NCBI GenBank assembly: GCA_964409385.1
Contig: CAYPCY010000002.1
Coordinates: 10,608-74,607 of the forward strand
DNA from: an uncultured Methanosarcinales archaeon
GTDB lineage: Archaea > Nanobdellota > Nanobdellia > Woesearchaeales > CAYPCY01
DNA: 64,000 nt
Reading direction: 5' to 3'
Shown here: one piece after another, positions 9,601 through 44,902 of the stretch
Numbering within the stretch: position 1 is the first letter of the stretch
Layout: every line of letters begins with the position of its first letter
Notes under the pieces: generated by a model
What the model saw: the letters and a program-made list of their open reading frames with translations, nothing else
What the model was told of the DNA's origin: nothing
The model's database searches: none
Program-made: the position numbers and the translations under genes

Positions 9601-11599
9601 GAATCCTCCTCCAGTATTTGTGGATGGGGCTTTTTCTCCTGGTGATGAAACTAATATTTATTGGGGAGATACTATTCCTTTCACTGCCCAAGCTACGGAT
9701 GCAGCTAGTGATCTTCAATCTATAGAATTAATATTTACTAACGGACCTTCTGGTTCAGGATATGCGAGTTTAGGAGTTACAGAATCTTCAGGATTTACTA
9801 ATAATTTATACTTTTCTGAATCTGTTAATTTTGCAGATTTTGTTTTTGGAACTTATACTTATCATTTTAAAGCTGTTGATTCCATAGGACAATTAACTAA
9901 TTCTCCTGATAGAACATTAACAGTTACAAATCAGGATCCTAGTATTACTGGTGTGAATTTTGATCCTGCTCCTGCAGAGTTTAATGAAGCATTATTTCCT
10001 AGTACTAATGTTGATGTTACAATTAGTGATTTAAGCAGGAATATTGTGGAGGTTTGGATTAGTGAAGATGCGAGTGGAAATCACTCTACTGGATTGCCTG
10101 CAGCTCACACAGTAAGTAATTCTTTTACAGTTTATGATATTCCTGTATCTTTTAGTAATGCTGGTTTTGGAAATTATGATTTGTATGTTAATGTTAAAGA
10201 TTCTGAGGATAGAACCGTCCAGGCTGGTCCTTACACTTTCGACTTTGCAAATTCAGCACCTGTGATTTCAGGAAGTCCTACACAAACTGGAACTTTAACA
10301 AAGAGTATTGCCGAAAATAATGGTTATGATTTTGTTGCTACATTTATTGATGCTAATAGTAATATTGATAGGATTGTCAGGTCTGCAATTTCAGGAACGG
10401 GAGTTTCTGCATGTAATAGTAATAATGATTGCGCGACTGAAACTGGAGATTCGAGTACTTTAACATCTACTCAGCATATAATGCAAAGTTTTGGAAGTTT
10501 TTGCACTGATAATTGTAAGACTTATTCTTATACTGCTTATGATTCTGAAGGAAGTTCTGGAAGTTCAGGAACAAAATCTTTTAATTATGTTGATGATTAT
10601 CCTACAATTTCAGTTTCTTGTCCTTTCAGTACTAATGATGACGTTTCAACACCAACACATATTTGTACAGTTTCAAAAACCGATTCTTACAACAGTGTTG
10701 GTGGAGGAGGTAGTTTTACAGGAGATGCATGCAGTTTAGTAAGTTTTTCTTCGCCAGGTAGTGCTGAGTTCTTTAGTGAAAGTTCGGATTGTACTTTTAA
10801 TTTTAATTTTCTTTTTGGTTGTACAGGTCATTCTTTCACTTTCAGAGTGACTGATAATGAAGGAAGATTTGTTGAGAGTAGTGCGTATAATATTAATTAT
10901 GTAACTAATGAGATTTGTGATAATATAGATAATAATTGTTACGGGGGTGTTGATGAAGGTTGTGATGATGATAATGATGGTTATTGTGATAGTTCAATGA
11001 CTGTTGTTGGAACTCCAAATACTTGTACTGCAGGAGGGTCTTCAAGTTTAGATTGTGACGATAGCAGGAGCGATGTACACCCAGGTGCTGAGGAAGTTTG
11101 TGATGGTTATGATAATGATTGTAATGCAGGAAATGGTTATGATTATGAGGGTTCAGTCGGTTGTAATTGGTATAACTACGATGGAGATAATGATGGTTAT
11201 GGATCTGCGACTGTAGCTGCTAAATGTTATTGTTCTCAAACAGGATATTATGACGTAACTAATACTGATGATTGTTGTGATAGTTCATGGTCTACCAAAC
11301 CTGGCCAAACTAATTATTATCCTTTTGCTAATAGTTGTGGTAGTTTTGATTATGATTGTAGTGATTCAATAGAATATGAGCATGGTTTAAGTGAAGAAGG
11401 TAATTGTAGGTCTCATAACCATGGTTGGGAATTTCATTGTCATGGAACCTATGATGTTTGGTATTCTGGTTCAGGGGATAGGTATGATGAGTGTGGTTTA
11501 ACAGATCCTGGAGATGGTAGTTATTTCGGTTTAAAACATCTTTGTAATGGTAATTGTGTAACACATCTGTATTATGGCATGACAATAAAATGTAGATAA
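6614..11599 (+). CDS. Giant pilin-like adhesin: class III signal peptide, tandem Ig/cadherin-like repeats, C-terminal Cys/Asp-rich (MopE-like) repeats
   Basis: MRKG/QSSIEF; recurring D..xN/DL and FGTYxFxF motifs about every 110-125 aa; EICDNIDNNC..GVDEGC and DCDD....VHPGAEEVCDGYDNDC motifs. Confidence 0.85.
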   Translation: MRKGQSSIEFVTLFTLVMLLFLGGLYFTGQKLVQIEDERTQKNSNAISNILQSEIELASKSEGNYSRLFSLPTLFKKDNYLIDVYDNFELTIDYNNREYVYPLKRNIIFFNVHPGGDNIVSHINNTVFIGDDSVITVDPNNIVLGVPEGSTITMKVTVASIFGGLSAIMRILEEPDCNSGPPGNECSNLPEYIVLEQIDFINFTTDLQIKDFGTYKFTINGTTIFTPPGRLISPIQDHNEPFYWLTLLNMPPTYGDYILPDDTSVYEQPKNFEPRFYATFHDDNADLEDVYLEFVDSPIGPYTVDPVPDLANWENVFPPVNYDFTFDQHVPLPDFGFYTFTFNVTDSQGMVNKTPLRIVELRNINPVVDGVYLEGEVPLPSITSWSDVLNFNNYHVEVVSSDINWNVKNITLVFTDFLNLDRPTNLQNIVVNNPAFETPDGESLPDGMHNPNGGVFRAEFDESNGLIFDAYGQFLFKFVATDILGLTHESEIYQVNTYPPPHYDESSIMPADSTIFELYEGFETDFEITFYDDVVGGYDFGLLNYVELEFTTVPDYSLINGAEVTFDPVSEYDFSVPKSLDKFGEYIYRFTGMNYLGGSNTTELVHAYLVNVPPIIQGVYERVSYTDPPLTYFPDPYPARIPYDPTYVIGADGGEDIFYLYVTDDNRNLRYAKLIQDSSPTGAPGGTVEFSVPQDSGVYWPDFRDFLFTKFGTYSFHFEVEDEYDLIDTSQQFSLNLINEYPYFDDTYCPNGICNSDGSDLSSSTSIIPVLSSTQNFNFGVKVYASDINWNLDNAIVEFTEGPSHGDMYHPFPDNKGEGYCSGGDNVFSLMFDSTGVGDDTDYGTYKFRVMLNDDEGLNTYSSEYTLTLNNNAPVFTEVCPDVPNWLSSCSGTVYTPSPALFIFENVGYDGSTFNIPITLTASDVNHNLHLLKVKITGPSDSNLNNQVYNYEVSPQNTLSNTFSFDFDVIGDYNVEFWAYDQEVDSVYHNFNIKLQNPPPVFVDGAFSPGDETNIYWGDTIPFTAQATDAASDLQSIELIFTNGPSGSGYASLGVTESSGFTNNLYFSESVNFADFVFGTYTYHFKAVDSIGQLTNSPDRTLTVTNQDPSITGVNFDPAPAEFNEALFPSTNVDVTISDLSRNIVEVWISEDASGNHSTGLPAAHTVSNSFTVYDIPVSFSNAGFGNYDLYVNVKDSEDRTVQAGPYTFDFANSAPVISGSPTQTGTLTKSIAENNGYDFVATFIDANSNIDRIVRSAISGTGVSACNSNNDCATETGDSSTLTSTQHIMQSFGSFCTDNCKTYSYTAYDSEGSSGSSGTKSFNYVDDYPTISVSCPFSTNDDVSTPTHICTVSKTDSYNSVGGGGSFTGDACSLVSFSSPGSAEFFSESSDCTFNFNFLFGCTGHSFTFRVTDNEGRFVESSAYNINYVTNEICDNIDNNCYGGVDEGCDDDNDGYCDSSMTVVGTPNTCTAGGSSSLDCDDSRSDVHPGAEEVCDGYDNDCNAGNGYDYEGSVGCNWYNYDGDNDGYGSATVAAKCYCSQTGYYDVTNTDDCCDSSWSTKPGQTNYYPFANSCGSFDYDCSDSIEYEHGLSEEGNCRSHNHGWEFHCHGTYDVWYSGSGDRYDECGLTDPGDGSYFGLKHLCNGNCVTHLYYGMTIKCR

Positions 11600-26706: not shown

Positions 26707-28689
26707 ATGATTCTTAAGTCTATAGAATTAAATAATATTAGAAGTTATAAGAATAATATAATAAATTTCCCGGAAGGTTCAATATTATTATCTGGAGATA
26801 TTGGTTCTGGAAAAACAACTATTTTATTAGCTGTAGAATTTGCCCTGTTCGGATTATCTCCTGAACTAAAAGGTTCTTCATTATTAAGAAATGGTTCAGA
26901 AAAAGGATTTGTAAGATTAAAGTTTAGAATAAAAAATAAGAATTTTGAAATTTTAAGAATTTTGAAAAGGACTAAAACTTCTGTCTTGCAAGATTCAGGA
27001 AGTTTCTCAAAAGAAGGAGAGGAAATAACATATACTGCATTAGAATTAAAAAGTAAAATTTTCAATATTTTAGGATATCCTCAAGCACTAATTTCAAAAT
27101 CTAAAAACTTAATTTATAGATTCACAGTCTTCACACCCCAAGAATCAGTAAAACAAATTCTTTTTGACACTGAAAGAATAGAAACTATAAGAAGATTATT
27201 CAATATAGACAAATATAAGAGGGTGAGGGAGAATTCTTCATTAATAATAAGGAATTTAAAGAATGAAACTAAAATTTTAGAGTCTAAATTAGAAGATAAA
27301 AATTCAAAAAAGGAATTAGTAAATCATAAACAAGAATCTAATAATAAATTAAAAATAGAAATTTCAAAAGTTGAAATTAGTTTGGGAGAATTAAGAAAAA
27401 ATTTAAAACAAAATAATGAAGAATTAAAAAAATTAGAAGATAACTTTTCTAAAACTCTAGAATTAAAAGAGAGATTAAACTCTAAAATTGAATTATTAAA
27501 CTCAACAGTTAAAGAAAAAGAAGAAAGAGAAATAAAAATAGCTAGTTTAAAAAAAGAATTAATAAGTTTAGAATTCGATCCTGAACAATTAAAAACATAT
27601 GTGAATGCAAAGCTTAAATTAGAAGATTTCATTTCAAAAGCCACTGCAAAATTAAATTTTTCTAAAGAAAAAATAACTAATTCAAACGAATTAACAAATA
27701 AGATAGACTCATTAAAAACTTGTCCTTTTTGCAAGCAAGAAGTAACACAAGAACATAAAGAAAAAATAATTGATGAAAAAAACAAGACAGTAAAAGAACA
27801 AGAATTAATTATTCAAGAATTAAATAATAAAACAATCAAAGCAAAAAACAAATTAGAAATAATAATTAAGAAAAAAGAAGAATTAGAACTAATAAAATCA
27901 AAAGTGGAATTTCAAGAGTTTAAGAAAAAACAAGTCAAAGAATTAAACAATTCAATAAAATTATCAAGAGTTAAAGAGTTAGAAAATGAAATTAATTCAA
28001 TAAAAGAAATATTAAATAATAAACAAGATTCTAAATTAAAAGAATTAAAAGAAAAGACTGAAATATTAGTTTCTAAGGAAAGAACAGTTCATATTAACCT
28101 AGTTTCATTAAAGAAGGAGTCTGAAGGAATTAATGAGATAATACAACTTTTAAATGAAGAACTTGAAGAGAAAAAACAAGAACAAATCAAATTAAAACTA
28201 ATAATTGAACAGATTAAGATTTTAGAATTATTAACGAAATCATCTATAATAATAGAAAAAAAAGTATTGCGTAAAGTCCATACAGAATTTAATGAACTTT
28301 TCAAGTCATGGTTCCAATCATTAATTAATGATGAAGTGTTAAGTTCAAAACTCGATGAGGATTTCAATCCAGTAATTTATCAAAATGGTTATGAAGCAGA
28401 CCTTCAAGCATTATCAGGTGGTGAAAAAACAGCAGTAGCATTTTCTTATAGGCTTTCAATGAATAAAGTAGTTAATGATGTTTTAACACATATAAATACT
28501 AAAAATTTGTTAATACTTGATGAACCAACCGATGGATTTTCAGAAGAACAACTTGATAATGTTAGGGAAGTTCTTGATCAATTAAATTCAAAACAGTTAA
28601 TAATAGTAAGTCATGAACCAAAATTAGAAAGTTTTGTTGATTCAGTTTTAAAAATTGAGAAATCAAACCATATTAGTACAGTACTTTAA
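26707..28689 (+). CDS. Rad50/SbcC-like SMC family ATPase
   Basis: Walker A GDIGSGKT, coiled coil with CPFC zinc hook, LSGGE signature, LILDEPT, IIVSH. Confidence 0.9.
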   Translation: MILKSIELNNIRSYKNNIINFPEGSILLSGDIGSGKTTILLAVEFALFGLSPELKGSSLLRNGSEKGFVRLKFRIKNKNFEILRILKRTKTSVLQDSGSFSKEGEEITYTALELKSKIFNILGYPQALISKSKNLIYRFTVFTPQESVKQILFDTERIETIRRLFNIDKYKRVRENSSLIIRNLKNETKILESKLEDKNSKKELVNHKQESNNKLKIEISKVEISLGELRKNLKQNNEELKKLEDNFSKTLELKERLNSKIELLNSTVKEKEEREIKIASLKKELISLEFDPEQLKTYVNAKLKLEDFISKATAKLNFSKEKITNSNELTNKIDSLKTCPFCKQEVTQEHKEKIIDEKNKTVKEQELIIQELNNKTIKAKNKLEIIIKKKEELELIKSKVEFQEFKKKQVKELNNSIKLSRVKELENEINSIKEILNNKQDSKLKELKEKTEILVSKERTVHINLVSLKKESEGINEIIQLLNEELEEKKQEQIKLKLIIEQIKILELLTKSSIIIEKKVLRKVHTEFNELFKSWFQSLINDEVLSSKLDEDFNPVIYQNGYEADLQALSGGEKTAVAFSYRLSMNKVVNDVLTHINTKNLLILDEPTDGFSEEQLDNVREVLDQLNSKQLIIVSHEPKLESFVDSVLKIEKSNHISTVL

Positions 28690-28747
28690 GAAACTTATTA
28701 GAAAAATATTTAAACATTCATCCATTAAAGAACCAAGAGGGGATTAT

Positions 28748-30151
28748 ATGCGTAAACTATTAATTGTAATGATTCTATTGCTTGCTAGTTTTGCTTCTGC
28801 AGAGGATTTCCTTGTTTCAATAACCCCCGTATTGAATGAACTTTATCCAACTGATGAATTTGCACTTTATGATATTTCAATAACTAATTTCAAAGATTCT
28901 TCTGATTATTTTAGTATTTCATTACTAGATTTTAATTGGTTGATTCCTTCAACTTCTATGATTGTTGAGTCTCAAGAAACTAAAACTATTCAAATTAAAG
29001 TATTTCCTTCAGGAATAGTGTCTTATCAAGTTTATTCATTACTATTTCAGATATGGAGTAGGGATGAAGCATTAACTGTTGAAAAAACAACTCCTTTATA
29101 CTATCAATCATTCACTAATCCTCAAGATTATGTTCCTGCTGTTAAGATGATAGTTAATGGTCCAGAGGATATAGATCCTAGAAATCCAGTTTCTTTATCA
29201 ATTTCGTTAAGGAATAGAAATCCTTTAGATATAGGAAATGCACAATTACAAGTTTCTGGAATTGCGGAAAAGACTAGAGATATTACACTAGCACCTTTAG
29301 AAGAGAAGACGCTTACAATGTCTTTAACTCCTGATCCTTTAATAGAACCAGGACAATACCCTATTTCAGTAAAATTACTTTATCAAGAAAATATAATTTC
29401 AGAATATGAATATGTAGCTACTATTGAGTCTTATTCTTCAATAAAACAAGATAAAAATGTAGAATCTAAATATTTAGGATTTTTAAGTATAGAGACTTTA
29501 AGTCTTACTAATGAAGGGAATGTTGAGAGAACTCCTGAAATTTCTAGAGTGTCTTCCTTATTTAATAGGCTAATTTCTAGTTCTAATCCTGATTACAAGA
29601 TTATTTCTAAGGATGGAAAGAAACATATTGCTTGGGATGTTACTCTACAACCTAATGAAAGTAAAAACATAATAATTAGAACAAATTATATTCCTTTAAC
29701 AATAATTTTAATTTTATTAATTATTGGTAATATATTTTACTTTAAGAACAGGAGTTCTTTATTAGTAAGTAAGGAAGCAAGAGTTCTTGCTGCTTCTAAA
29801 GAAGGCATTTCAAAGATTAAAGTGGCTATTTATTTGAGGAATAGAACTTCCAAACCCGTTTCAGATGTTGTTTTAATGGATAAACTTCCTGCCATTGCAA
29901 ACTTAATAAGTGATGATTCAGTAGGTATTGTCAAACCTCAAAAAGTAATTCATGGCAAAGCTAGAAAAACTTTATTGAAATGGAATTTAGGAAGTTTAGA
30001 ACCTTTTGAAGAGAGAATATTAACTTATAAGATTAAATCAAAACTGAGTATTGTTGGTGGTTTAGGACTTCCTCCTTCAAGAGTTAAATTCTTAACTCAT
30101 GATGATAGGGAAAAGTTCGCAATATCTAATAATCCTTTCACTGAAGAATAA
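28748..30151 (+). CDS. Secreted Ig-like (CARDB/S-layer-domain-like) membrane protein
   Basis: Signal peptide (SFASA/), PGQY Ig motif, TM, DUF11-like tail; SD GAGGGG before ATG 28748. Confidence 0.7.
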   Translation: MRKLLIVMILLLASFASAEDFLVSITPVLNELYPTDEFALYDISITNFKDSSDYFSISLLDFNWLIPSTSMIVESQETKTIQIKVFPSGIVSYQVYSLLFQIWSRDEALTVEKTTPLYYQSFTNPQDYVPAVKMIVNGPEDIDPRNPVSLSISLRNRNPLDIGNAQLQVSGIAEKTRDITLAPLEEKTLTMSLTPDPLIEPGQYPISVKLLYQENIISEYEYVATIESYSSIKQDKNVESKYLGFLSIETLSLTNEGNVERTPEISRVSSLFNRLISSSNPDYKIISKDGKKHIAWDVTLQPNESKNIIIRTNYIPLTIILILLIIGNIFYFKNRSSLLVSKEARVLAASKEGISKIKVAIYLRNRTSKPVSDVVLMDKLPAIANLISDDSVGIVKPQKVIHGKARKTLLKWNLGSLEPFEERILTYKIKSKLSIVGGLGLPPSRVKFLTHDDREKFAISNNPFTEE

Positions 30152-30703: not shown

Positions 30704-30793
30704 GGGCCGGTAGCTCAGCCTGGTAGAGCACTTGGCTTTTAACCAAAACAGAAGGCAACCAAGGTGTCGCGAGTTCGAATCTCGTCCGGCCCA
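30704..30793 (+). tRNA. tRNA-Lys(TTT) with canonical 37/38 intron (30742-30757)
   Basis: GGGCCGG/CCGGCCC acceptor, CTTGG/CCAAG anticodon stem, BHB central helix CTTT/AAGG. Confidence 0.92.
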
Positions 30794-30803
30794 TACAAAA
30801 AAA

Positions 30804-31043
30804 ATGGCAAAAGAAGAAAAATTGGAGCATGTTTTAGTACCCGAGCATAAAAAGCTCTCTAAAGAAGAAAAATCTAACCTTCTAGAAAAATATTCAATTG
30901 ATGAAACTAAATTACCAGTAATTAAAATTAAAGATCCCGCAATAGAACATTTAGAACTAGTTCCGAATGACGTTATCAAGATTGAAAGAACAAGCTTGAC
31001 TGCTGGAAGAATAGACTTTTTTAGGAGGGTTATTGATGAGTAA
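30804..31043 (+). CDS. rpoH: DNA-directed RNA polymerase subunit H (Rpo5)
   Basis: HVLVPEH..LS, LPVIK..DPA, DVIKIER.S.TAG, RRV. Confidence 0.97.
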   Translation: MAKEEKLEHVLVPEHKKLSKEEKSNLLEKYSIDETKLPVIKIKDPAIEHLELVPNDVIKIERTSLTAGRIDFFRRVIDE

Positions 31044-32511
31044 TATTCTTGTAGAAAATTATTTTAGAGAAAAATCATTGATATCTTCAAATATTGAATC
31101 ATTCAATAAGTTTATTGACAAGTACCTTCAAGAAATAATTAATGAAAATAAAGAAGTAGAACCAACAATAATTCCAGGAAACATTCAAGATTTTAAGATA
31201 AGACTTGACAAAATTTGGGTTTCAAAACCAGAAGTTACAGAAGCGGATGGTTCAAAAAGAGAAATTACACCTACTGAAGCAAGATTAAGAAAAATTTCTT
31301 ACGCAGCACCAATTTATTTAGAGGTTTCTTCACATGTTAATGGAGTTCAAAGAGAAGCTTTCAAAAGCCAAATTGGTAATTTACCAATAATGCTAAAATC
31401 TAAATATTGTCATTTACATGGACTTTCTAAAGAAGAACTAATTAGTAAGGGAGAAGATCCTGACGATCCAGGAGGATACTTCATTATTAATGGTACAGAA
31501 AGAGTTGTCGTTATAATTGAAGATCTTGCGAGCAATACTTTAATGGTTAGCGAAGATAAAGGCGTTTCTCCTTTTGTAGGAAAATTATTTTCAGAAAGAG
31601 GATCTTATAAAATTCCTCATACTTTCGAACAATTAAGAAAGGACGGCATTTTTTATCTAACATTAACAAGATTACAGAGAGTTCCCATAATTTTATTAAT
31701 TAAAGCTTTAGGAATTGTCAAGGATGAAGAGATTATGAAATTAATAAAATCACCTTATGATTCTGAAATGCTAATTAACTTGTATGAACAATCAACCATT
31801 AAGACTGAAGAGGAAGCTATTGATAAACTAGCTAAGAAGATTGGAATAACACAAGTTAGAGAGATTAGACTTGAAAGAACTAGAGATATTTTAGACAAAT
31901 TCTTACTTCCACATATTGGAACTACTAGCGAATTTAGAATGGCTAAGGCAAAGAATTTATGTAAATATTTAAGCAAGTTCATTCTTGTTTCAAAAGGAGA
32001 CTTACCAACTGATGATAAGGATCATTATAAAAATAAAAGGTTAAAAATGGCAGGAGATCTTCTTGCTGATTTGTTCAGGGTTAATATTAAAGTTTTAATT
32101 GGAGACATGCTTTATAATTTCCAAAGAATAGTAAAAAGAGGAAAATTTCCTTCAGTAAAAGTAGTTATTAGGAATAAATTATTAACTCAAAGAATTTATA
32201 GTATGTTAGCAACTGGTTCATGGGTTGGAGGTCGTAAAGGAGTTTCCCAAAGATTATCCAGACATAATTTCTTAGATACAATGTCGCACTTACAAAGGGT
32301 TGTTAGTCCTCTTATGAGCTCTCAAGAAAATTTTGAGGCTAGAGCTTTACACCCTACTCATTTAGGAAGACTTTGTCCTACTGAAACTACTGAAGGAACA
32401 AATATTGGTTTAAGAAAGAATCTTTCATTATTATCTAAAGTTTCTTCAGAGGTTGATGTTGAAGAATTAATAACTTCATTAAAAAATGTGGGTTTGGAGG
32501 AGGAAAAATGA
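31036..32511 (+). CDS. rpoB2: RNA polymerase subunit B'' (Rpo2N)
   Basis: EARLR..SY.AP, DPGGYFIINGTERV, DKDHY.NKRL, HLGRLCP.ET. Confidence 0.97.
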   Translation: MSNILVENYFREKSLISSNIESFNKFIDKYLQEIINENKEVEPTIIPGNIQDFKIRLDKIWVSKPEVTEADGSKREITPTEARLRKISYAAPIYLEVSSHVNGVQREAFKSQIGNLPIMLKSKYCHLHGLSKEELISKGEDPDDPGGYFIINGTERVVVIIEDLASNTLMVSEDKGVSPFVGKLFSERGSYKIPHTFEQLRKDGIFYLTLTRLQRVPIILLIKALGIVKDEEIMKLIKSPYDSEMLINLYEQSTIKTEEEAIDKLAKKIGITQVREIRLERTRDILDKFLLPHIGTTSEFRMAKAKNLCKYLSKFILVSKGDLPTDDKDHYKNKRLKMAGDLLADLFRVNIKVLIGDMLYNFQRIVKRGKFPSVKVVIRNKLLTQRIYSMLATGSWVGGRKGVSQRLSRHNFLDTMSHLQRVVSPLMSSQENFEARALHPTHLGRLCPTETTEGTNIGLRKNLSLLSKVSSEVDVEELITSLKNVGLEEEK

Positions 32512-34310
32512 CTGATGTGTTTTTGGACGGAAAATTTATTGGCACTGTAAAAAATGAAGAAGTATTTGTTGAAAAAATAATTTCTGAAAGAAGATCTGGA
32601 AAATTCCCTGAAAGTATTAGTGCAAGATTTGACGATTCTGTGAAATCTGTACTTCTAGAATCTTGCAGAGGAAGAACTCTAAGGCCTTTACTAGTTGTTA
32701 AGAATGGAAAAACATTACTTAATGAAAAGCATATTTCTAAATTAAAATCAAGGGATTTAAAATGGACTGATCTAATAAAACAAGGAGTTATTGAATATTT
32801 AGATGCTAATGAGGAAGAATCAGCATTCATAGCTTTTTTCGAAGATGAATTAACTAAAGAAAATACTCATCTGGAAGTTTCTGCATTAGGAATGGTTGGA
32901 TTATGCACTTCTCTAGTTCCTTTTGGAAACTACAGTCCAGGTACTAGACTTATTCAAGGTTCTAAAAATCAAAAACAAGCATTAGGATTCTACGCTGCAA
33001 ATTATTTACAAAGAATGGACATGGACATTAGTTTATTACATACTCCTCAAATTCCACTAGCCCAATCATTAATGCACGAAGTTTCTGATTATAACAAGCA
33101 TCCATCAGGACAAAATATTGTTTTGGCAGTTATGAGTTATGAAGGATATAACATGGAAGACGCTATTGTAATAAATAAGGGGTCTATAGAGAGGGGTCTT
33201 GGAAGAAGTACTTACTTCAGACCAGTTTCTGCAGAAGAACTTAGATATTCGGGTGGTCTTATTGATGAAGTTTGTATTCCTGACAAGGATGTAAAAGGTT
33301 ACTTATCAGAAGTTGACTATAGATATTTAGAGGATGATGGAATAATCTATCCAGAAGCAAAAGTGTCTGAAGGAAATGTAATAATTGGAAAAACTAGTCC
33401 TCCAAGATTCTTAAGTTCTCTAGATGAATATAATCTTGCAACAAGCAGCAGAAGAGAATCTTCACTAGCATTAAAACATGGAGAGAAAGGAACTATTGAT
33501 TTTGTTTTATTAACAGAGAATGAAGAAGGAAATAAACTAGTTCAAGTAAGAGTTAGAGAACAGAGAGTCCCAGAAATAGGAGATAAATTTACATCAAGAC
33601 ATGGTCAAAAAGGAGTTGTTGGATTAGTTCTTCCTGAGGAAGATGTTCCATTCACTGCTTCAGGAGTAACTCCTGATATAATTTTCAGTCCTCACGGTAT
33701 GCCTAGTAGGATGACAGTTTCTCACTTTATAGAATTAATAGCTGGAAAAGTAGCAGCATTATCAGGAAGATATGTTGACGGTACTATGTTTTATTCAGAA
33801 AAAGAAAATGATTTAAGAAAAGAACTTGAAAGTTTTGGTTTTACTGAAAATGGAACAGAAACACTATATAATGGAATAACTGGAGAAAGGTATAAAGCAA
33901 AAATATTCATTGGAAACATGTATTATATGAAATTAAAACATATGGTTGCTAATAAAGTTCATTCAAGAGCAAGGGGACCTATACAATTACTAACAAGACA
34001 ACCTACTGAAGGAAGGGCTAAAGAAGGAGGTCTTAGACTTGGAGAGATGGAAAAGGACACTTTCGTAGCTCATGGAGCTTCATTACTATTGAAAGAAAGG
34101 TTTGATTCTGATAAAACAATAGTTCCAGTTTGTGAAAGTTGTGGAGCAATGGCAGTTTTTGATGAGTATAAAAGTAGAACCTTCTGTCCATTATGTGGGG
34201 AGGATTCTAAAGTTGGAAATACTGAAATGAGCTTTGCTTTCAAGCTAATGCTTGATGAGTTCAAAAGTTTAGGAATATTCCCTAAATTAAATTTGAAGAG
34301 TAAATACTAA
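32508..34310 (+). CDS. rpoB1: RNA polymerase subunit B' (Rpo2C)
   Basis: GYNMEDA, GDKFTSRHGQKG, LKHMV..K.H.R, GGLRLGEME, Zn ribbon. Confidence 0.97.
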   Translation: MTDVFLDGKFIGTVKNEEVFVEKIISERRSGKFPESISARFDDSVKSVLLESCRGRTLRPLLVVKNGKTLLNEKHISKLKSRDLKWTDLIKQGVIEYLDANEEESAFIAFFEDELTKENTHLEVSALGMVGLCTSLVPFGNYSPGTRLIQGSKNQKQALGFYAANYLQRMDMDISLLHTPQIPLAQSLMHEVSDYNKHPSGQNIVLAVMSYEGYNMEDAIVINKGSIERGLGRSTYFRPVSAEELRYSGGLIDEVCIPDKDVKGYLSEVDYRYLEDDGIIYPEAKVSEGNVIIGKTSPPRFLSSLDEYNLATSSRRESSLALKHGEKGTIDFVLLTENEEGNKLVQVRVREQRVPEIGDKFTSRHGQKGVVGLVLPEEDVPFTASGVTPDIIFSPHGMPSRMTVSHFIELIAGKVAALSGRYVDGTMFYSEKENDLRKELESFGFTENGTETLYNGITGERYKAKIFIGNMYYMKLKHMVANKVHSRARGPIQLLTRQPTEGRAKEGGLRLGEMEKDTFVAHGASLLLKERFDSDKTIVPVCESCGAMAVFDEYKSRTFCPLCGEDSKVGNTEMSFAFKLMLDEFKSLGIFPKLNLKSKY

Positions 34311-34311
34311 A

Positions 34312-36870
34312 ATGGAAAACGTACCAAACGAGATTAATAATATAACTTTTAGCCTGTTCGGTCCTAAAACGATTAAGAACATGGCTGCGGCCAAGGTAGT
34401 AACACCAGAACTTTATGATAGGGAAGGATATCCTGTTGATGGCGGTTTAATGGATATTAGATTAGGAGTTATCGATCCTGGAATTAGATGTAAAACTTGC
34501 GGTTCTAAATTAAAAGAATGCCTTGGACATTTTGGTTATATTGAATTAGCAAGACCAGTAGTTCATGTTAAATTTGTTCCAACCATATTAAGTATTTTAA
34601 GAAGTACTTGTAACGAGTGTTCTAAACTTCTTGTTTCTGATGAAGAATTAGAAGATGCAAAGAAATTATTAAAAAATACTATTCCAAAGTTAGTATTAAA
34701 ATCTTTAAAACTTGGCAAGAGTTGTCCTCATTGTAAGTCTGAACAAGGAAAAATAATGCTTGAAAAACCAACCACTTTTTTAGAAGTTGATAAGAGAATT
34801 TCACCTATTGAGGTTAGGTCAAGACTTGAGAAGGTTCCTGATGATGCATTGCCTGTTTTTGGTATTAATCCAGAAGCTGCAAGGCCTGAATGGCCAATCT
34901 TGACTGTATTAGCAATTCCACCAGTTACTATGAGACCTTCCATAACTTTAGAGTCTGGAGAAAGAAGTGAGGATGATTTAACACATAAACTAGCAGATAT
35001 TGTAAGGATTAATCAAAGACTTTTCGAGAATATTAACGCTGGAGCTCCAGAAATCATCATTGAAGATTTATGGGATTTATTACAGTATCACATCACAACA
35101 TTTTTTGATAATAATCTTTCTCAATTACCACCTGCTCGTCACAGAAGTGGAGAGCCACTAAAAACATTAACAGAAAGAATAACTAGTAAAGAAGGAAGAA
35201 TAAGACATAATTTAGCAGGTAAAAGAACTAATTTTTCTGCAAGAACAGTTATTAGTCCAGATCCTAAAATTGAAATGGATGAAGTTGGAGTTCCTATAGT
35301 TATGGCTTTAAAACTTACAGTTCCTGAAAGGATTACTGAATGGAATTTGAATTATCTGAAAAAGTTTGTTGAGAACGGTCCTAAAGTATATCCAGGCGCT
35401 AATTATATTGTTAGGCCTGATGGTAAAAAGAAAAAAATAACTGATGATACTAAAGAACAATTATTAGAAGAGATAGAACCAGGATTCCAGGTTGAAAGGC
35501 ATTTAATAGATGGTGATGTAGCATTATTTAACAGACAACCTTCACTACATAGAATGTCTATGATGTGTCACAAGGTTAAGGTACTTCCAGGCCTAACATT
35601 AAGACTAAATCCTGCTGTTTGTGCCCCTTACGCTGCAGACTTTGACGGGGATGAAATGAATTTGCACATTCCTCAAACAGAAGAAGCAAGGGCTGAAGCA
35701 GAAATATTACTAGAAGTAGAAACTCAAGTTATTAGTCCAAGGTACGGATTAAGTATAATTGGTTGTAATCAAGACTCAGTTTCAGGAAATTATGTTCTTA
35801 CTAAATATTTAGATTTTCCTAGGAGTGAAGCCATAGACTTACTTGCTTCAATAGGAGTTACTGATTTTTCAAAACTTCCAAAGAAAGAAATTGTTTCTGG
35901 AAAAGAAGTTTTTTCAGTATTACTTCCTAAAGATTTCAATTTTGAAGGTCACGCAAAATCTTACAAGCCAGGATCTAAAAATTCTGACGATTTTGTTAAG
36001 ATAGAAAAAGGAGTATTAAAAACAGGAGTATTAGACAGTAAAAATATTGGTGGTGGTTCTGGACTTTTACTGAGAAATTTACACAAACAATACGGTCAAG
36101 AAAGAGCACTAAAAATGCTAGGATTATTTTTCAGGCTTGGAATTCAAACTTTATTGAAGTACGGGTTTTCATCTTCATTATCCGATACTGACTTAACTTC
36201 TAAAGCTTCCAAAGAGGTTGAAAATATAATTTTAGAATCTGAAAAGGAAGTTAATAAATTAATTAAGAAGTATAATCAAAAAACTTTAGTTTCTCTTCCA
36301 GGAAGAGGATTAAGAGAAACTTTAGAACTAAAAATTCTTGAAGTTCTTAATAGAGCAAGAAACGATGCTGGAAAAGTAGTTTTCGATACTGCTGATGTAA
36401 TGAGTCATACTTACATAATGGTTGATTCGGGAGCTAGAGGTAATGAAATCCAACTAGCTCAAATGGCTGCTTGTGTAGGACAACAAGCGTTCAGAGGGTC
36501 TAGAATTAACCAAGGATTTGGAGGTAGAACATTATCTTGTTTCAAAAAGAATGATTTAAGTCCTAAAGCACATGGTTTTGTTAGGGGGGGTTATAAGTCA
36601 GGATTAAAACCTCACGAGTTCTTTTTTATGAATATGACTGGTAGGGATTCATTAATGGATACTGCATTAAGAACTCCAAAATCAGGTTATCTCTACAGAA
36701 GATTAGCTAATGCCATGCAGGATTTAAAAGTAGAATATGATTTTACTGTTAGAGATGCAGCTAATAAGATTGTTCAATTCACGTATGGAGAGGACGGTAT
36801 TGATGTTTCAAAAAGTGAAGGAGGCAGTATTAACATTAAAAAAATAGTTGATACTGTTATTAAGGGTTGA
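34312..36870 (+). CDS. rpoA1: RNA polymerase subunit A' (Rpo1N)
   Basis: GHFGYIELA.PV, NRQPSLH, ADFDGDEMN, SGYL.RRL. Confidence 0.97.
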   Translation: MENVPNEINNITFSLFGPKTIKNMAAAKVVTPELYDREGYPVDGGLMDIRLGVIDPGIRCKTCGSKLKECLGHFGYIELARPVVHVKFVPTILSILRSTCNECSKLLVSDEELEDAKKLLKNTIPKLVLKSLKLGKSCPHCKSEQGKIMLEKPTTFLEVDKRISPIEVRSRLEKVPDDALPVFGINPEAARPEWPILTVLAIPPVTMRPSITLESGERSEDDLTHKLADIVRINQRLFENINAGAPEIIIEDLWDLLQYHITTFFDNNLSQLPPARHRSGEPLKTLTERITSKEGRIRHNLAGKRTNFSARTVISPDPKIEMDEVGVPIVMALKLTVPERITEWNLNYLKKFVENGPKVYPGANYIVRPDGKKKKITDDTKEQLLEEIEPGFQVERHLIDGDVALFNRQPSLHRMSMMCHKVKVLPGLTLRLNPAVCAPYAADFDGDEMNLHIPQTEEARAEAEILLEVETQVISPRYGLSIIGCNQDSVSGNYVLTKYLDFPRSEAIDLLASIGVTDFSKLPKKEIVSGKEVFSVLLPKDFNFEGHAKSYKPGSKNSDDFVKIEKGVLKTGVLDSKNIGGGSGLLLRNLHKQYGQERALKMLGLFFRLGIQTLLKYGFSSSLSDTDLTSKASKEVENIILESEKEVNKLIKKYNQKTLVSLPGRGLRETLELKILEVLNRARNDAGKVVFDTADVMSHTYIMVDSGARGNEIQLAQMAACVGQQAFRGSRINQGFGGRTLSCFKKNDLSPKAHGFVRGGYKSGLKPHEFFFMNMTGRDSLMDTALRTPKSGYLYRRLANAMQDLKVEYDFTVRDAANKIVQFTYGEDGIDVSKSEGGSINIKKIVDTVIKG

Positions 36871-36875
36871 TATTA

Positions 36876-37994
36876 ATGAAAGCATTCGATGAGTATAAAG
36901 GAAAATTACCTGTTTCTTTAATTGAAGAGGTTAAAGAAGAATTACCTGAAGGTATTAATGAAGCAAAAGTTAAGAAAATATTGGAAGAAGTCTATTCAGA
37001 ATACATTAAGAGTTTAGTGAATCCTGGTGAATCTGTAGGAATAATTTCTGCAGAATCAATTGGAGAACCTAGTACTCAAATGACATTAAACACTAAATTA
37101 TTAGCAGGGGTTTCCGAAATGAATGTTACTCTTGGAATTCCCAGAATTATTGAAATTTTAGACGGAAGAAAAATAATAAAAACTCCTATGATGGAAATAG
37201 GACTTAATAAGAAATTTTTGGATAAGGAAGTTAAAAAATTCGCAATGAAAATAAAAGATACTTCTTTGAAAGAGTTTGTTGTTAAGGTTTCTACAGATAT
37301 TACTAATAGTTCACTAAAGCTTGATTTGAATAAAGATCTTCTTTCAGAGTATGATTTAACTCCTGAAGAAATTAAAGTTTTAGTGGCTAAGAAGCATGAT
37401 GTTAAATTAACAGGCAATTCTTTAACAATTAAAGTTAAGGATGCTTCAATAGGTGATTTACATGAGGTTAAAGGTATAGTTTTAGATTTACATGCTATTG
37501 GAATAAAAGGAGTAACACAAGTATTACCTGTTAAAAAAGACACAAAACATGTTATAATGACTTCTGGTTCAAACCTTAAAGAAGTATTAAAACTTGATTT
37601 TGTCGATCCAAAAACCACTAAAAGTAATGATCTTTATGAAACAGAAAAATTCTTTGGTATAGAAGCAGTTAGACAATTAATAATAGACGAAGTTCTAAAG
37701 GTTTTCGAAAATCAAGGATTAGATATTAATGCAAGACACATATTGTTAATCGCTGATATGATGTGTTATTCTGGAAAGATTCAAGGAATAACAAGATATG
37801 GGATCGTTTCTGAAAAGAAATCAGTTCTTGCCAGGGCTTCTTTCGAAACACCTGTAAAGTACTTAATAGCAGCTGCATTAGATGGTGAAGTTGATGAGTT
37901 GGCTAGTGTTGTTGAGAATGTTATGATTAACCAACCAATTCCTGTAGGAACTGGTCTTCCAGGACTTGTAACAAAGTTTAAAAATAAAAAGTAA
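36876..37994 (+). CDS. rpoA2: RNA polymerase subunit A'' (Rpo1C)
   Basis: PGESVG..SA.SIGEP.TQMTL, GIEA.R, RHI.L.AD.M, LARASFE, GTG. Confidence 0.97.
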   Translation: MKAFDEYKGKLPVSLIEEVKEELPEGINEAKVKKILEEVYSEYIKSLVNPGESVGIISAESIGEPSTQMTLNTKLLAGVSEMNVTLGIPRIIEILDGRKIIKTPMMEIGLNKKFLDKEVKKFAMKIKDTSLKEFVVKVSTDITNSSLKLDLNKDLLSEYDLTPEEIKVLVAKKHDVKLTGNSLTIKVKDASIGDLHEVKGIVLDLHAIGIKGVTQVLPVKKDTKHVIMTSGSNLKEVLKLDFVDPKTTKSNDLYETEKFFGIEAVRQLIIDEVLKVFENQGLDINARHILLIADMMCYSGKIQGITRYGIVSEKKSVLARASFETPVKYLIAAALDGEVDELASVVENVMINQPIPVGTGLPGLVTKFKNKK

Positions 37995-38007: not shown

Positions 38008-38265
38008 ATGAAGGCAGATATTAGAAAGATTGTTGAATCAAAGAAGACAATTTTAGGGAAGAATAGAACTTTAAAAGCATTACATTCTAAAACTTTAAAG
38101 ACAGTATTTCTAGCTAAAAATAGTCCTAAAACTTTAAAGTCTGATTTTGAAAGATATTCTAGAATTTCAGGCTTTAAACTAGTAAATACTGATTTTTCTA
38201 ATGAAGAGTTAGGAGTTATTTGTAGAAAACCATTTTTTGTTTCAGTAATTGGAGTTTTGAAATAA
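38008..38265 (+). CDS. rpl30e: 50S ribosomal protein L30e
   Basis: ILG...TLK, ELGVICRKPF.VSVI; conserved position after rpoA2. Confidence 0.92.
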   Translation: MKADIRKIVESKKTILGKNRTLKALHSKTLKTVFLAKNSPKTLKSDFERYSRISGFKLVNTDFSNEELGVICRKPFFVSVIGVLK

Positions 38266-38676
38266 ATGGGAGTTTCTTTTGATGTTAAAACTTTACAATT
38301 AATTTCTTTATTTGAAAAAAAAACTAGGACTAGAGTAAAAGATTGTATTTTAACTGATGATAAAACAATTTTTGTTCTTGAAAAAGGAAATTTGTTTAAA
38401 ATTATTAAAAACAAAGGAAGTATTCAAAAACTAGAAGATTTATTTAAGTTTAAGATAAAATTAGTAGAATTTAATTCGGATATTACTATTTTCGTGAAAA
38501 ATTTTGTTCATCCTATAAGACCAGAAAGTGTAATTGAAGAAAATAATATCATAAGTATTAAAGGTTCTGACACTAAATCTAAAGGTTTACTAATTGGTAG
38601 AGATTCAAGAAATCTAATTTTACTGAAGAATGTCTTAAAAAAGTTCTTCATTATAGAGGATATTAAGGTCGTATAA
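38266..38676 (+). CDS. nusA: Archaeal NusA-like transcription factor
   Basis: FE..T...VKDCI, KG.LIGR...N KH motif; synteny. Confidence 0.9.
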   Translation: MGVSFDVKTLQLISLFEKKTRTRVKDCILTDDKTIFVLEKGNLFKIIKNKGSIQKLEDLFKFKIKLVEFNSDITIFVKNFVHPIRPESVIEENNIISIKGSDTKSKGLLIGRDSRNLILLKNVLKKFFIIEDIKVV

Positions 38677-38716
38677 TGCAAATTTTTATAAATGGTTTTA
38701 ATTTTCGAGGATTTAT

Positions 38717-39154
38717 ATGGCAAAGAAAGGAAATGGATTGAATGCAGGTAAGAAATTATTGGCTAGAAGATCTAAATTTAGATGGGCTAACAAAGCGTTT
38801 AAGAAAAAAACTTTAAATTTGAAGAGAAAATCAGATCCTTTAGCAGGAAGTTCACAAGCTTCAGGTATTGTTCTTGAAAAAATCCAAGTAGAAGCTAAAC
38901 AACCAAATTCTGCAATGAGAAAATGCGTTCGTGTACAACTTGTTAAGAATGGAAAGCAAATATCTGCATTCCTTCCGGGTGATGGCGCAACTAAAATGGT
39001 TGATCAACATGATGAGGTTGTTATTGAATGTATTGGAGGAAGCAGGGGGAGGTCTAAAGGAGATCTTCCTGGAGTTAGGTGGCAAGTAATAAAAGTTAAT
39101 GATCAATCCTTGAAAGCATTGCTTTCAGGCAAGTTAGAAAAGGCAAGAAAATAA
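38717..39154 (+). CDS. rps12: 30S ribosomal protein S12 (uS12)
   Basis: [24 protein letters not shown]. Confidence 0.98.
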
Positions 39155-39747
39155 TGATAAAAGCATTCAATAAGTGGGGAACTGAAGAAATTAAGGTAGA
39201 AGACCCTGGACTAGTAAAGTACATTTCTTTAAAAGCTAAGATTGTTCCTAGAACTGGAGCGAGATATGCTAAGAATAGATTTCATAAATCAAACACTTTT
39301 ATTATTGAAAGATTAATGAATAAAGTAATGGTTCCAGGTCACAAATCTAAAAAACATTTCAAAACATCATATCATGCTACTGGAAAATCAGGAAATGCTT
39401 ATGAATTAATTAAAAAAACTTTATTATATATTGAAGAAAAAACTAAAGAAAATCCTATTAAAGTTTTTGTAAAAGCGTTAGAAAATGCTGCTCCTAGGGA
39501 AGAAATAATAACTATTGAATATGGTGGTGCTCGTTATCCTAAAGCAGTAGAATGTGCGCCTCAAAGAAGAATTGATGTTGCATTAAGATTAATGGTTCAA
39601 GGATCTTATCAGAAAGCTTTCGATAGTAAAAAACCTTCATTCCAGGCTTTAGCTGAGGAGATTCTTAATGCTTATAATATGAAGCCTGCAAGCACTGCTA
39701 TTTCTAAGAAGTTAGAGCTTGAAAGACAAGCAGATTCTAGCAGATAA
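39154..39747 (+). CDS. rps7: 30S ribosomal protein S7 (uS7)
   Basis: NPI.V.V.A.EN..PREE, P.RR.D.AL, ELER.A.SSR. Confidence 0.98.
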   Translation: MIKAFNKWGTEEIKVEDPGLVKYISLKAKIVPRTGARYAKNRFHKSNTFIIERLMNKVMVPGHKSKKHFKTSYHATGKSGNAYELIKKTLLYIEEKTKENPIKVFVKALENAAPREEIITIEYGGARYPKAVECAPQRRIDVALRLMVQGSYQKAFDSKKPSFQALAEEILNAYNMKPASTAISKKLELERQADSSR

Positions 39748-44215: not shown

Positions 44216-44902
44216 ATGGATAAAAATAATCTATGTATTAATGAAGAATTAGTATATATAATAGGTGTTATTATGGGGGATGGACACATATCTAATTCAT
44301 CTAAATCAAAAACTGATCTGTCTAAAGATTATAGAATTTCTATTGAAAGTGTTGATTTTGGATTTTTGAAAGTGGTAGAGAAATTAATAAAAAAATATGT
44401 TGAAACTAAAAGTATTGTAAGATTGTTAAAAAAAAGAGAAGGGAAACAACAATCATATTATTTTCAAATAAGAAATAAGAGATTTTATTTGTGGCTTGTT
44501 GAATTTGTGAAAATTCCGCCAGGGGCTAAATCTAGAAAGTTGAGATTGCCAGAGTATATATTAAAAGGGACTTATGAACTGAAGACGTCTTTTCTAGCAG
44601 GATTATTCGATTCGGATGGGGGTTTTAGAGGCAAGACCATCGGATTTACTATGAGTTCTGAATTGTTCCAAGATGATATTTTCAATCTTTTAAGAGAATT
44701 AAATATTTCTTCTTCGAAAGATCAGTGGGTTAATAAAATTACATTAAAAACATATTTTGGTTTAAGAATTCACAAATCTGGGGCAATAAAATTTTTAAAG
44801 GAAGTAATTCTTCGAAATCCTGAGAAAATCGAAAGATTATTGGTGCGGGAATGCCGGAGTGGCCAAACGGGACAGATAAATTGTTTAAAGAAAACGATTT
44901 AG
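44216..44902 (+). CDS. Free-standing two-motif LAGLIDADG homing endonuclease
   Basis: YIIGVIMGDG and FLAGLFDSDG motifs, G.KS....LP; no intein splicing motifs. Confidence 0.88.
   Translation: MDKNNLCINEELVYIIGVIMGDGHISNSSKSKTDLSKDYRISIESVDFGFLKVVEKLIKKYVETKSIVRLLKKREGKQQSYYFQIRNKRFYLWLVEFVKIPPGAKSRKLRLPEYILKGTYELKTSFLAGLFDSDGGFRGKTIGFTMSSELFQDDIFNLLRELNISSSKDQWVNKITLKTYFGLRIHKSGAIKFLKEVILRNPEKIERLLVRECRSGQTGQINCLKKTI

Follow-up and report, generated by a model that had tools for sequence, protein, structure and literature searches.

A single-copy archaeal RNA polymerase lacking the asparagine of the metal-A loop and the histidine of the trigger loop

RNA polymerase operon and active-site substitutions

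The stretch of DNA analyzed here (the window) is 64,000 nucleotides long (positions 10,608 to 74,607 of contig CAYPCY010000002.1, assembly GCA_964409385.1). Its host is a small marine archaeon of the DPANN group (Diapherotrites, Parvarchaeota, Aenigmarchaeota, Nanoarchaeota, and Nanohaloarchaeota), labelled Woesearchaeota or Nanoarchaeota. The window carries an RNA polymerase operon in the standard archaeal order, rpoH-B''-B'-A'-A''-L30e-NusA-S12-S7 (Table 1), and two genes of this operon, encoding Rpo1N (A') and Rpo1C (A''), are the subject of this report. Textbooks treat the asparagine (Asn) of the NADFDGD motif in the metal-A loop and the histidine (His) of the trigger loop as invariant, and both underlie mechanistic models of how nucleotides are selected and how catalysis proceeds. 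Neither is present in the polymerase of the window.

Rpo1N contains the Rpb1 domains in order (PF04997, PF00623, PF04983, PF05000, and PF04998; E values of 1e-22 to 1e-82). Its metal-A loop is PYAADFDGDEMN, encoded by TAC GCT GCA GAC TTT GAC GGG GAT GAA ATG AAT. Ala441 (GCT, 35632-35634) stands in place of Asn (N479 of Rpb1, N458 of beta'), and its codon is two base changes away from AAT or AAC. The triad of Mg-binding Asp residues (D-F-D-G-D) is intact, and the spacing of 33 residues between Arg408 and Ala441 is the same as that between R446 and N479 of Rpb1. The trigger loop of Rpo1C is GEPSTQMTLNTKLLAGV, with K77-L78-L79 at 37095-37103. The His that contacts the phosphate of the nucleoside triphosphate (NTP) is replaced by Leu78, and the Gln, Leu, and Asn contacts of the canonical trigger loop (Q..LN.FH.AG) are present in T-Q-M-T-L-N. 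Equivalences to Rpb1 and beta' numbering are based on motif identity and register and on the residue names in PMC5127505 and PMC7862312. An earlier note on this DNA had reported AADFDGD with an Ala codon (gct) two base changes from an Asn codon, retention of the three Mg-binding Asp residues, and an accompanying change in the trigger loop; the DNA and its translation bear out each of these observations.

Table 1. Genes and active-site elements of the polymerase operon in the window
Feature	Position	Strand	Evidence and remarks
rpoH (Rpo5), first gene in the polymerase operon	30732..31043	+	Pfam RNA_pol_Rpb5_C, E 1.9e-23
Rpo2N (B''), split form	31033..32511	+	Pfam Rpb2 domains 1-3
Rpo2C (B')	32508..34310	+	Pfam Rpb2 domains 4-7
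Rpo1N (A'), 852 aa	34312..36870	+	Pfam Rpb1 domains 1-5; one match in own genome
Arg408 of NRQPSLH, retained (Rpb1 R446, beta' R425)	35533..35535	+	Translation
Metal-A loop, Y-A-A-D-F-D-G-D-E-M-N	35629..35661	+	Translation, frame of the 34312-36870 open reading frame
Rpo1C (A'')	36867..37994	+	Pfam Rpb1 domain 5; the 372-aa form starting 3 codons later is P0124
Trigger loop, nucleotide-interacting part, G-E-P-S-T-Q-M-T-L-N-T-K-L-L-A-G	37062..37108	+	K77, L78, and L79 replace Rpb1 F1084, H1085, and F1086
L30e, NusA-like KH protein, S12, and S7 (downstream operon genes; non-polymerase tree markers)	38008..39747	+	Pfam

Fixation of the substitutions

Asn is found at 28 of the 29 loci of relatives within NADFDGD, and at the remaining one within NADYDGD. 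A search of 5.8 billion clustered proteins listed 120 Rpo1N proteins, of which 117 have NADFDGD, one has NADFDRD, and two have AADFDGD. The last two are the protein of the window itself and P0003, a partial protein from another assembly that is identical to it at 504 of 611 residues (a 39-residue gap counted). A protein from a third source, P0123, also has Ala and matches Rpo1N of the window at 778 of 852 residues. Ala is found in all in three distinct Rpo1N sequences that are 82-100% identical. In the corresponding search with the trigger-loop region, the 120 proteins listed comprise 7 with K-L-L (KLL) and 113 with His. Five of the KLL proteins belong to the clade of the window and are 83-90% identical to each other; the other two form a separate pair with 81% mutual identity and 50% identity to Rpo1C of the window. 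A metagenome contig (L186; 1846 bases, 86% identical) also encodes KLL. Four additional runs from marine or seawater samples, two of which are possibly one data set filed twice, yielded Logan contigs that span both sites with 0 differences.

Two further sequences deviate from the metal-A motif: genome G018 (L177/L030) has N-A-D-Y-D-G-D, and P0016 has N-A-D-F-D-R-D, in which the change of Gly to Arg may be an error. Protein P0003 is without 39 residues of the N-terminal Cys-rich clamp region (residues 67-105 of P0001), which may be an artefact of assembly or gene calling on its 2-kb contig.

That the two substitutions stem from a sequencing or assembly error, from a pseudogene, or from a spare paralogue has a negligible probability. 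These possibilities are excluded by the independent Ala and KLL sequences, the matching contigs, the intact open reading frames (ORFs), and the single copy of the gene. An error would have to span the two bases that separate the Ala codon from an Asn codon; Ala also occurs in sequences that are 82% and 91% identical, and the contigs of other runs show no difference at either site. The ORFs encode full sets of Pfam domains. The genome comprises 15 contigs with 797,906 bases in total (completeness score 100%, contamination 0.01) and contains exactly one match to Rpo1N, so there is no canonical polymerase alongside it of the kind that accompanies plant Pol IV and Pol V.

General decay of the polymerase was also considered and is rejected. 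Across 811 highly conserved columns of Rpo1 and Rpo2, the window has 14 private changes and ranks 10 of 39 genomes, and the two genomes of genus g14, which carry the other KLL sequences described below, have 11 and 7. Genomes with 31-72 private changes retain Asn and, where it is readable, His. This indicates that the changes in catalytic residues are specific and do not reflect an enzyme eroding as a whole.

Co-occurrence of the two substitutions within the order

The 40 relatives with a match to Rpo1N all belong to the same order, each to a different family. In a sample of 401 genomes of this order, the context P-Y-x-A-D-F-D-G-D-E-M is present in 359. The codon at x does not start with A in three of the 401 genomes: that of the window (G000; GCT, Ala) and G013 and G214 (both GGT, Gly). 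The same three are the only genomes with a trigger-loop context in which the second base of the His-position codon is not A; for this pattern the other 398 are scored as having no match, which does not by itself establish that they carry His. Both tallies include the unpublished genomes G273, G315, G209, G182, G207, G131, G120, G205, G374, G303, G337, and G111, none of which is a variant. Genomes G013 and G214 belong to genus g14 of family f14, and the window belongs to family f1.

Members of genus g14 combine G-A-D-F-D-G-D with T-K-L-L-A-G-V, whereas those of its sister genus g140 (G142 and G271) combine N-A-D-F-D-G-D with T/M-F-H-L. In the alignment, Asn is present in all 36 other genomes of the order and His in 35 of the 36, the trigger loop of the last (L180) being unreadable there. 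The trigger loop of relatives is T-F-H-F/L, and the 35 readable relatives from the order fit T-F/K-H-x, as against TKLLAGV in the window. Among 80 metagenome loci related to Rpo1C, both sites are readable in 50, and all of these have Asn and His. At 21 others only the trigger loop is readable (L186 is the sole KLL), at one only Asn, and at 8 neither. Among everything examined, loss of His occurs only where Asn has also been lost.

Loss of Asn in other lineages

One genome from each of 185,579 prokaryote species was scanned for Y-x-A-D-F-D-G-D-E/Q-M with a codon at x that does not start with A. The scan is blind to Ser (AGY), Thr, Ile, Met, Lys, and Arg (AGR) at x and may omit the genome records of the window itself. 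It returned 105 loci, with Gly at x in 83, Ala in 18, His in 2, Tyr in 1, and Ser in 1. Two loci (L064 and L098) are not polymerases; the remaining 103 include 83 with Gly and 16 with Ala. Almost all belong to DPANN archaea (Woese-, Pace-, Micr-, Parv-, and Nanoarchaeota) or to bacteria of the candidate phyla radiation (CPR) type (Woykebacteria and similar), and small sets are labelled Methanobacteriota or Thermococci and Thermoplasmatota. Taxonomy was assigned from the database label and the sequence type, which disagree for some loci. In ultra-small DPANN archaea and CPR-type bacteria, loss of Asn appears to recur.

The trigger loop is readable in 82 of the 103 polymerase loci, and 78 of these retain His. 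Of the four without His, L101 is the g14 genome counted above (Gly with KLL), L039 and L091 have Ala with V-F-R-M (His to Arg), and L038 is a divergent bacterial-type polymerase that has His at the Asn position and N-F-S-A in its trigger loop. Strict two-way covariation of Asn and His is thus rejected. The earlier note had proposed that the metal-A loop and the trigger loop co-evolved. This is supported in one direction only: Ala and KLL go together in the clade of the window, and the same three of 401 genomes, from two lineages, lack both Asn and His, but elsewhere the loss of Asn is mostly accompanied by His.

Several further features of these loci were seen. In archaeal-type polymerases with a substituted Asn (loci among L031-L135), Thr gives way to Val or Ser immediately before the trigger-loop Phe in 36 of 63 readable trigger loops (for example V-F-H-A or S-F-H-L), and Lys replaces this Phe in 9 of them; Thr precedes it in most Asn-keeping relatives from the order of the window. 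The position before the Phe may be a second covarying position or may reflect lineage background. Rpo1N and Rpo1C are apparently fused into one ORF of about 1105-1165 aa at Pacearchaeota-type loci (L031, L033, L037, L040, L041, L047, L050, L052, and L069, and likewise L075, L078, L082, L089, L095, L096, L104, and L108). Rpo2 is a single ORF of about 1100 aa, with B'' and B' fused, in g140 (L147 and L148, that is, G271 and G142) and in G020 (L161); the split form occurs in the window, g14, and most relatives. The genome of L057 has an Rpo1C ORF of 892 aa (L276/L278, G409:C3) in which G-E-P-G-T-Q-M is immediately followed by a break in the trigger loop; the loop picks up again about 1.3-2.3 kb later at T-M-R-T-H-H-M-A-G-V. 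The sequence suggests that an intein sits in this trigger loop, and another contig of the genome carries a second Rpo1C.

Number of origins

The nine genes of the operon were taken from 38 genomes and the window, giving 39 rows and 2980 columns, and a tree was built under LG+G4 with the Asn and trigger-loop columns masked. Genomes G011, G012, and G035 (fragmentary matches) and G033 and G039 (the most distant, with 52-53% identity) were omitted from the trees. The window falls in a clade with support of 100 together with four genomes that have Asn and His (L149, L156, L160, and L168). Genus g14 is the sister of g140, also with support of 100, inside a different clade, in keeping with the family codes, which place the window (f1) outside f14. 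Three hand-made rearrangements that join the window and g14 are worse by 214-231 log-likelihood (lnL) units, with P values below 1e-30 in the approximately unbiased test (p-AU), and a fast constrained search that joins them is worse by 223.6 lnL (p-AU 0.0007). All gene partitions, including NusA and S12, are neutral or favor the free tree over most of the trees in which the two were held together. The trigger-loop DNA of the window and that of G013 differ at many synonymous sites, which makes a recent transfer of the trigger-loop segment unlikely. Two independent origins of the paired change are thus well supported, though not proven, and the data point to convergence on the same pair of changes in two separated lineages.

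Convergence was also counted at alignment columns with a conservation of at least 94% among the other genomes. There are 350 of these in Rpo1N, of which 6 are changed in the window and 8 in g14; two are changed in both (G228 to A or S, and Asn). Rpo1C has 94, of which 7 are changed in the window and 3 in g14; two are again shared (His, and A268 to V or T). No conserved column of Rpo2, including Rpo2N, is changed in both. By our own arithmetic from these counts, the 4 shared changes in Rpo1 compare with about 0.36 expected under random placement. Residue 228 of Rpo1N (about 34993-34995) changes from Gly to Ala or Ser in D-D-L-T-H-K-L-x-D-I-V in both KLL lineages and presumably lies in the switch-2 helix, and residue 268 of Rpo1C (about 37668-37670) changes from Ala to Val or Thr in G-I-E-A-x-R in both.

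Published enzymology and comparable polymerases

Three beta' residues that contact the 2'-OH (R425, N458, and Q929) are called universally conserved; the Asn touches the ribose hydroxyls of the NTP, and R425 is the major determinant of sugar selectivity (PMC7862312). The N458S substitution of beta' lowers selectivity about 4-fold at the binding step and less than 5-fold overall, in E. coli and yeast (PMC7862312). This substitution and yeast Rpb1 N479S (cited in PMC5737373) affect the same position as Ala441, remove the hydrogen bond to the ribose hydroxyl, and have mild effects on discrimination between ribonucleotides (rNTPs) and deoxyribonucleotides (dNTPs). The Ser in these mutants keeps a hydroxyl, whereas the natural variants, found in 103 species-level genomes, have Ala or Gly and no polar group.

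The trigger-loop His is described as universally or ultra-conserved and as the target of alpha-amanitin in RNA polymerase II (Pol II), and it is treated as a positional catalyst to which Leu is similar in size (PMC12391331). Yeast rpb1-H1085L is viable and healthy, so that, as in the window, Leu at this position supports life; substitutions with A, N, D, or F are lethal, and those with K, R, W, or Y are severe (PMC5127505). Loss-of-function substitutions at Q1078, N1082, and N479 combine non-additively, which indicates overlapping roles (PMC5127505). F1084R is lethal and is suppressed by Q1078S and by Rpb2 Y769F, residues that are nearby in the closed state (PMC12391331). F1084K alone and F1084K/H1085L are classed as UltraSickToLethal, and Q1078S/F1084K, Q1078A/F1084K, and L1081M/F1084K fall in viable classes (PMC12391331 supplement). 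The likeness to the window is that Lys is tolerated only with the ribose-module Gln also changed (Q1078S or Q1078A), L1081M/F1084K being the further viable pair. However, these are laboratory alleles of a eukaryotic enzyme in which the F1084K/H1085L pair is UltraSickToLethal, whereas K-L-L in the window is the natural, fixed state of the only polymerase. The partner change in the window is also in the metal-A loop (the equivalent of N479), a combination not found in the yeast data examined.

[quoted passage not shown] They are, however, extra, specialized, and non-essential paralogues beside an intact Pol II, whereas the archaeon has one polymerase in which few pocket residues differ. With canonical archaeal Rpo1N and Rpo1C the window shares the operon order, the split A'/A'', the Pfam domains, the Asp triad, the Arg of NRQPSLH, and the trigger-loop Gln, Leu, and Asn; it differs in the Asn of NADFDGD and in the trigger-loop His. 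The strings GADFDGD and AADFDGD had no match in the literature searched, which does not include about 1.7 million PubMed Central articles and most subscription-journal papers, and searches of it on the NADFDGD motif and on the trigger loop in DPANN returned nothing on natural variants. A new natural variant of so well known an enzyme should surprise specialists.

Genome content and neighboring genes

The genome of the window encodes a TFS-type zinc ribbon and the large subunit of a ribonucleotide reductase. No AIRS (PurM/PurL-type) domain was found in it. Directly upstream of the polymerase operon are a gene for an SbcC/Rad50-like ATPase (26707-28689, + strand) and a 498-aa ORF without a Pfam match (28655-30151, + strand). 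A free-standing LAGLIDADG homing-endonuclease-like ORF of 228 aa lies at 44216-44902 (+ strand).

A proposed remodelling of the nucleotide pocket and its alternatives

The window probably encodes a single, essential, working RNA polymerase whose NTP pocket has been remodelled at two epistatically coupled contacts (Asn to Ala, and F-H-F to K-L-L). Loss of Asn probably came first and was permissive, because it is widespread on its own. Without the Asn side chain, the Gln/Asn ribose-contact module would be weakened, and a Lys-Leu trigger loop that would be harmful with this module intact, as in yeast, could become tolerable; loss of Asn would thus play the part of Q1078S or Q1078A in yeast. Leu, being of similar size, would fill the His position sterically, consistent with the view of His as a positional catalyst; the residue gained beside it is a Lys. 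Such an enzyme would be expected to bind NTPs more weakly (a higher Km), to add nucleotides more slowly, and to lose some discrimination between rNTPs and dNTPs. Any effect on sugar selectivity is probably modest, since the Arg chiefly responsible for reading the 2'-OH is kept. A symbiont that grows slowly may be able to afford a slower, more weakly binding polymerase. The evidence supports co-evolution with the trigger loop in one direction only. As to the broader proposal, that Ala or Gly with Lys-Leu-Leu constitutes a second workable active-site design for multisubunit RNA polymerases, reached at least twice by the same epistatic route, with loss of Asn itself recurrent in DPANN and CPR-type lineages, the chances appear about even.

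Several points weigh against coupled change and against its repeated origin. Most Asn-substituted enzymes keep His, and Lys occurs at the Phe position with both Asn and His intact in three loci of the tree set (L159, L181, and L182), one metagenome locus, and two database proteins, which means that neither change strictly requires the other. Surveys for His loss that did not start from Asn loss comprised only the sample of the order, the 50 metagenome loci, and the 120 database proteins. In yeast, mutations of Q1078 or N1082 combined with those of H1085 are synthetic sick or lethal (PMC5127505), so that yeast predicts combined defects in the ribose module and the His to be harmful; PMC12391331, as far as examined, does not mention N479 and contains no N479 double mutants. 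On the side of origins, all nine genes of the tree come from one operon, and the alternatives in which the window and g14 were held together consist of three hand-made rearrangements and one fast search. A tree of Rpo1N and Rpo1C alone (34 rows) places the window and g14 apart, but a joint constraint costs only 6.4 lnL (p-AU 0.44), and these two genes cannot reject a single origin. The codons GCT and GGT are also one base apart, which makes a single origin cheap at the codon level.

Drift without functional coupling would explain the same data as slightly harmful changes fixed in tiny, bottlenecked symbiont populations, with the losses of Asn and His being separate accidents. The recurrence of Asn to Gly or Ala at the 103 polymerase loci, nearly all DPANN or CPR-type, fits this explanation, as do the 78 of 82 Asn-substituted enzymes that keep His and the mildness of the published single substitutions (less than 5-fold for N458S, PMC7862312; healthy growth for H1085L, PMC5127505). 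However, both changes are rare in the order and fall in exactly the same three genomes, the same K-L-L triplet arose in lineages that the nine-gene tree separates, and the change from Phe to Lys needs at least two base changes. KLL and Ala are moreover constant across members of the clade that differ by 10-17%, and the polymerase of the window is not unusually diverged. Drift without coupling is considered unlikely.

An adaptive relaxation of sugar selectivity, in which the polymerase evolved to accept 2'-dNTPs or other scavenged nucleotide analogues, is less probable still and is regarded as doubtful. The ribose contact made by the Asn (PMC7862312) and the poorer discrimination of Pol IV and V, substituted at the Asn and in the trigger loop (PMC5737373), are in its favor. 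The effect of N458S is at most 4-fold, though, and the major determinant is R425 (PMC7862312), whose equivalent Arg is kept in the window together with the trigger-loop Gln. Deoxynucleotides incorporated into mRNA by the only polymerase of an organism would be costly, and the genome encodes its own ribonucleotide reductase. The nucleotide-scavenging symbiont suggested in the earlier note agrees with the absence of an AIRS/PurM-type domain, which fits purine scavenging and would favor relaxed selectivity, but Asn-keeping sister lineages presumably live in the same way, so this lifestyle is no explanation for the change. It is very improbable that the loss of Asn and His reflects escape from a natural inhibitor docking at the NTP site or on the trigger loop, whose contact points would thereby be removed. 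Convergent loss of the same contacts would be typical of target-site resistance, the trigger-loop His is described as the target of alpha-amanitin in Pol II (PMC12391331), and a paper on a nucleoside-analogue inhibitor appears to mention the NADFDGD motif (PMC9979225). Nothing in the window suggests a producer or immunity gene, and the wide loss of Asn across DPANN and CPR-type lineages argues for a general cause. We know of no inhibitor of archaeal polymerases that acts on the NTP site or the trigger loop.

Implications

Natural essential polymerases without Asn and His bear on the dispute over whether the trigger-loop His acts as an acid-base or a positional catalyst. If the coupled remodelling proposed here is correct, nature already shows that this His is not an essential acid-base catalyst, and the two lineages would be a concrete case in which epistasis of the metal-A loop with the trigger loop can be tested. 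For annotation pipelines and for structure-based inhibitor design, the presence of the Asn and the His cannot be safely assumed. Substrate selection would also be tuned differently in episymbionts, and the 103 species-level genomes without Asn suggest that transcription in ultra-small symbionts is subject to different constraints on substrate selection.

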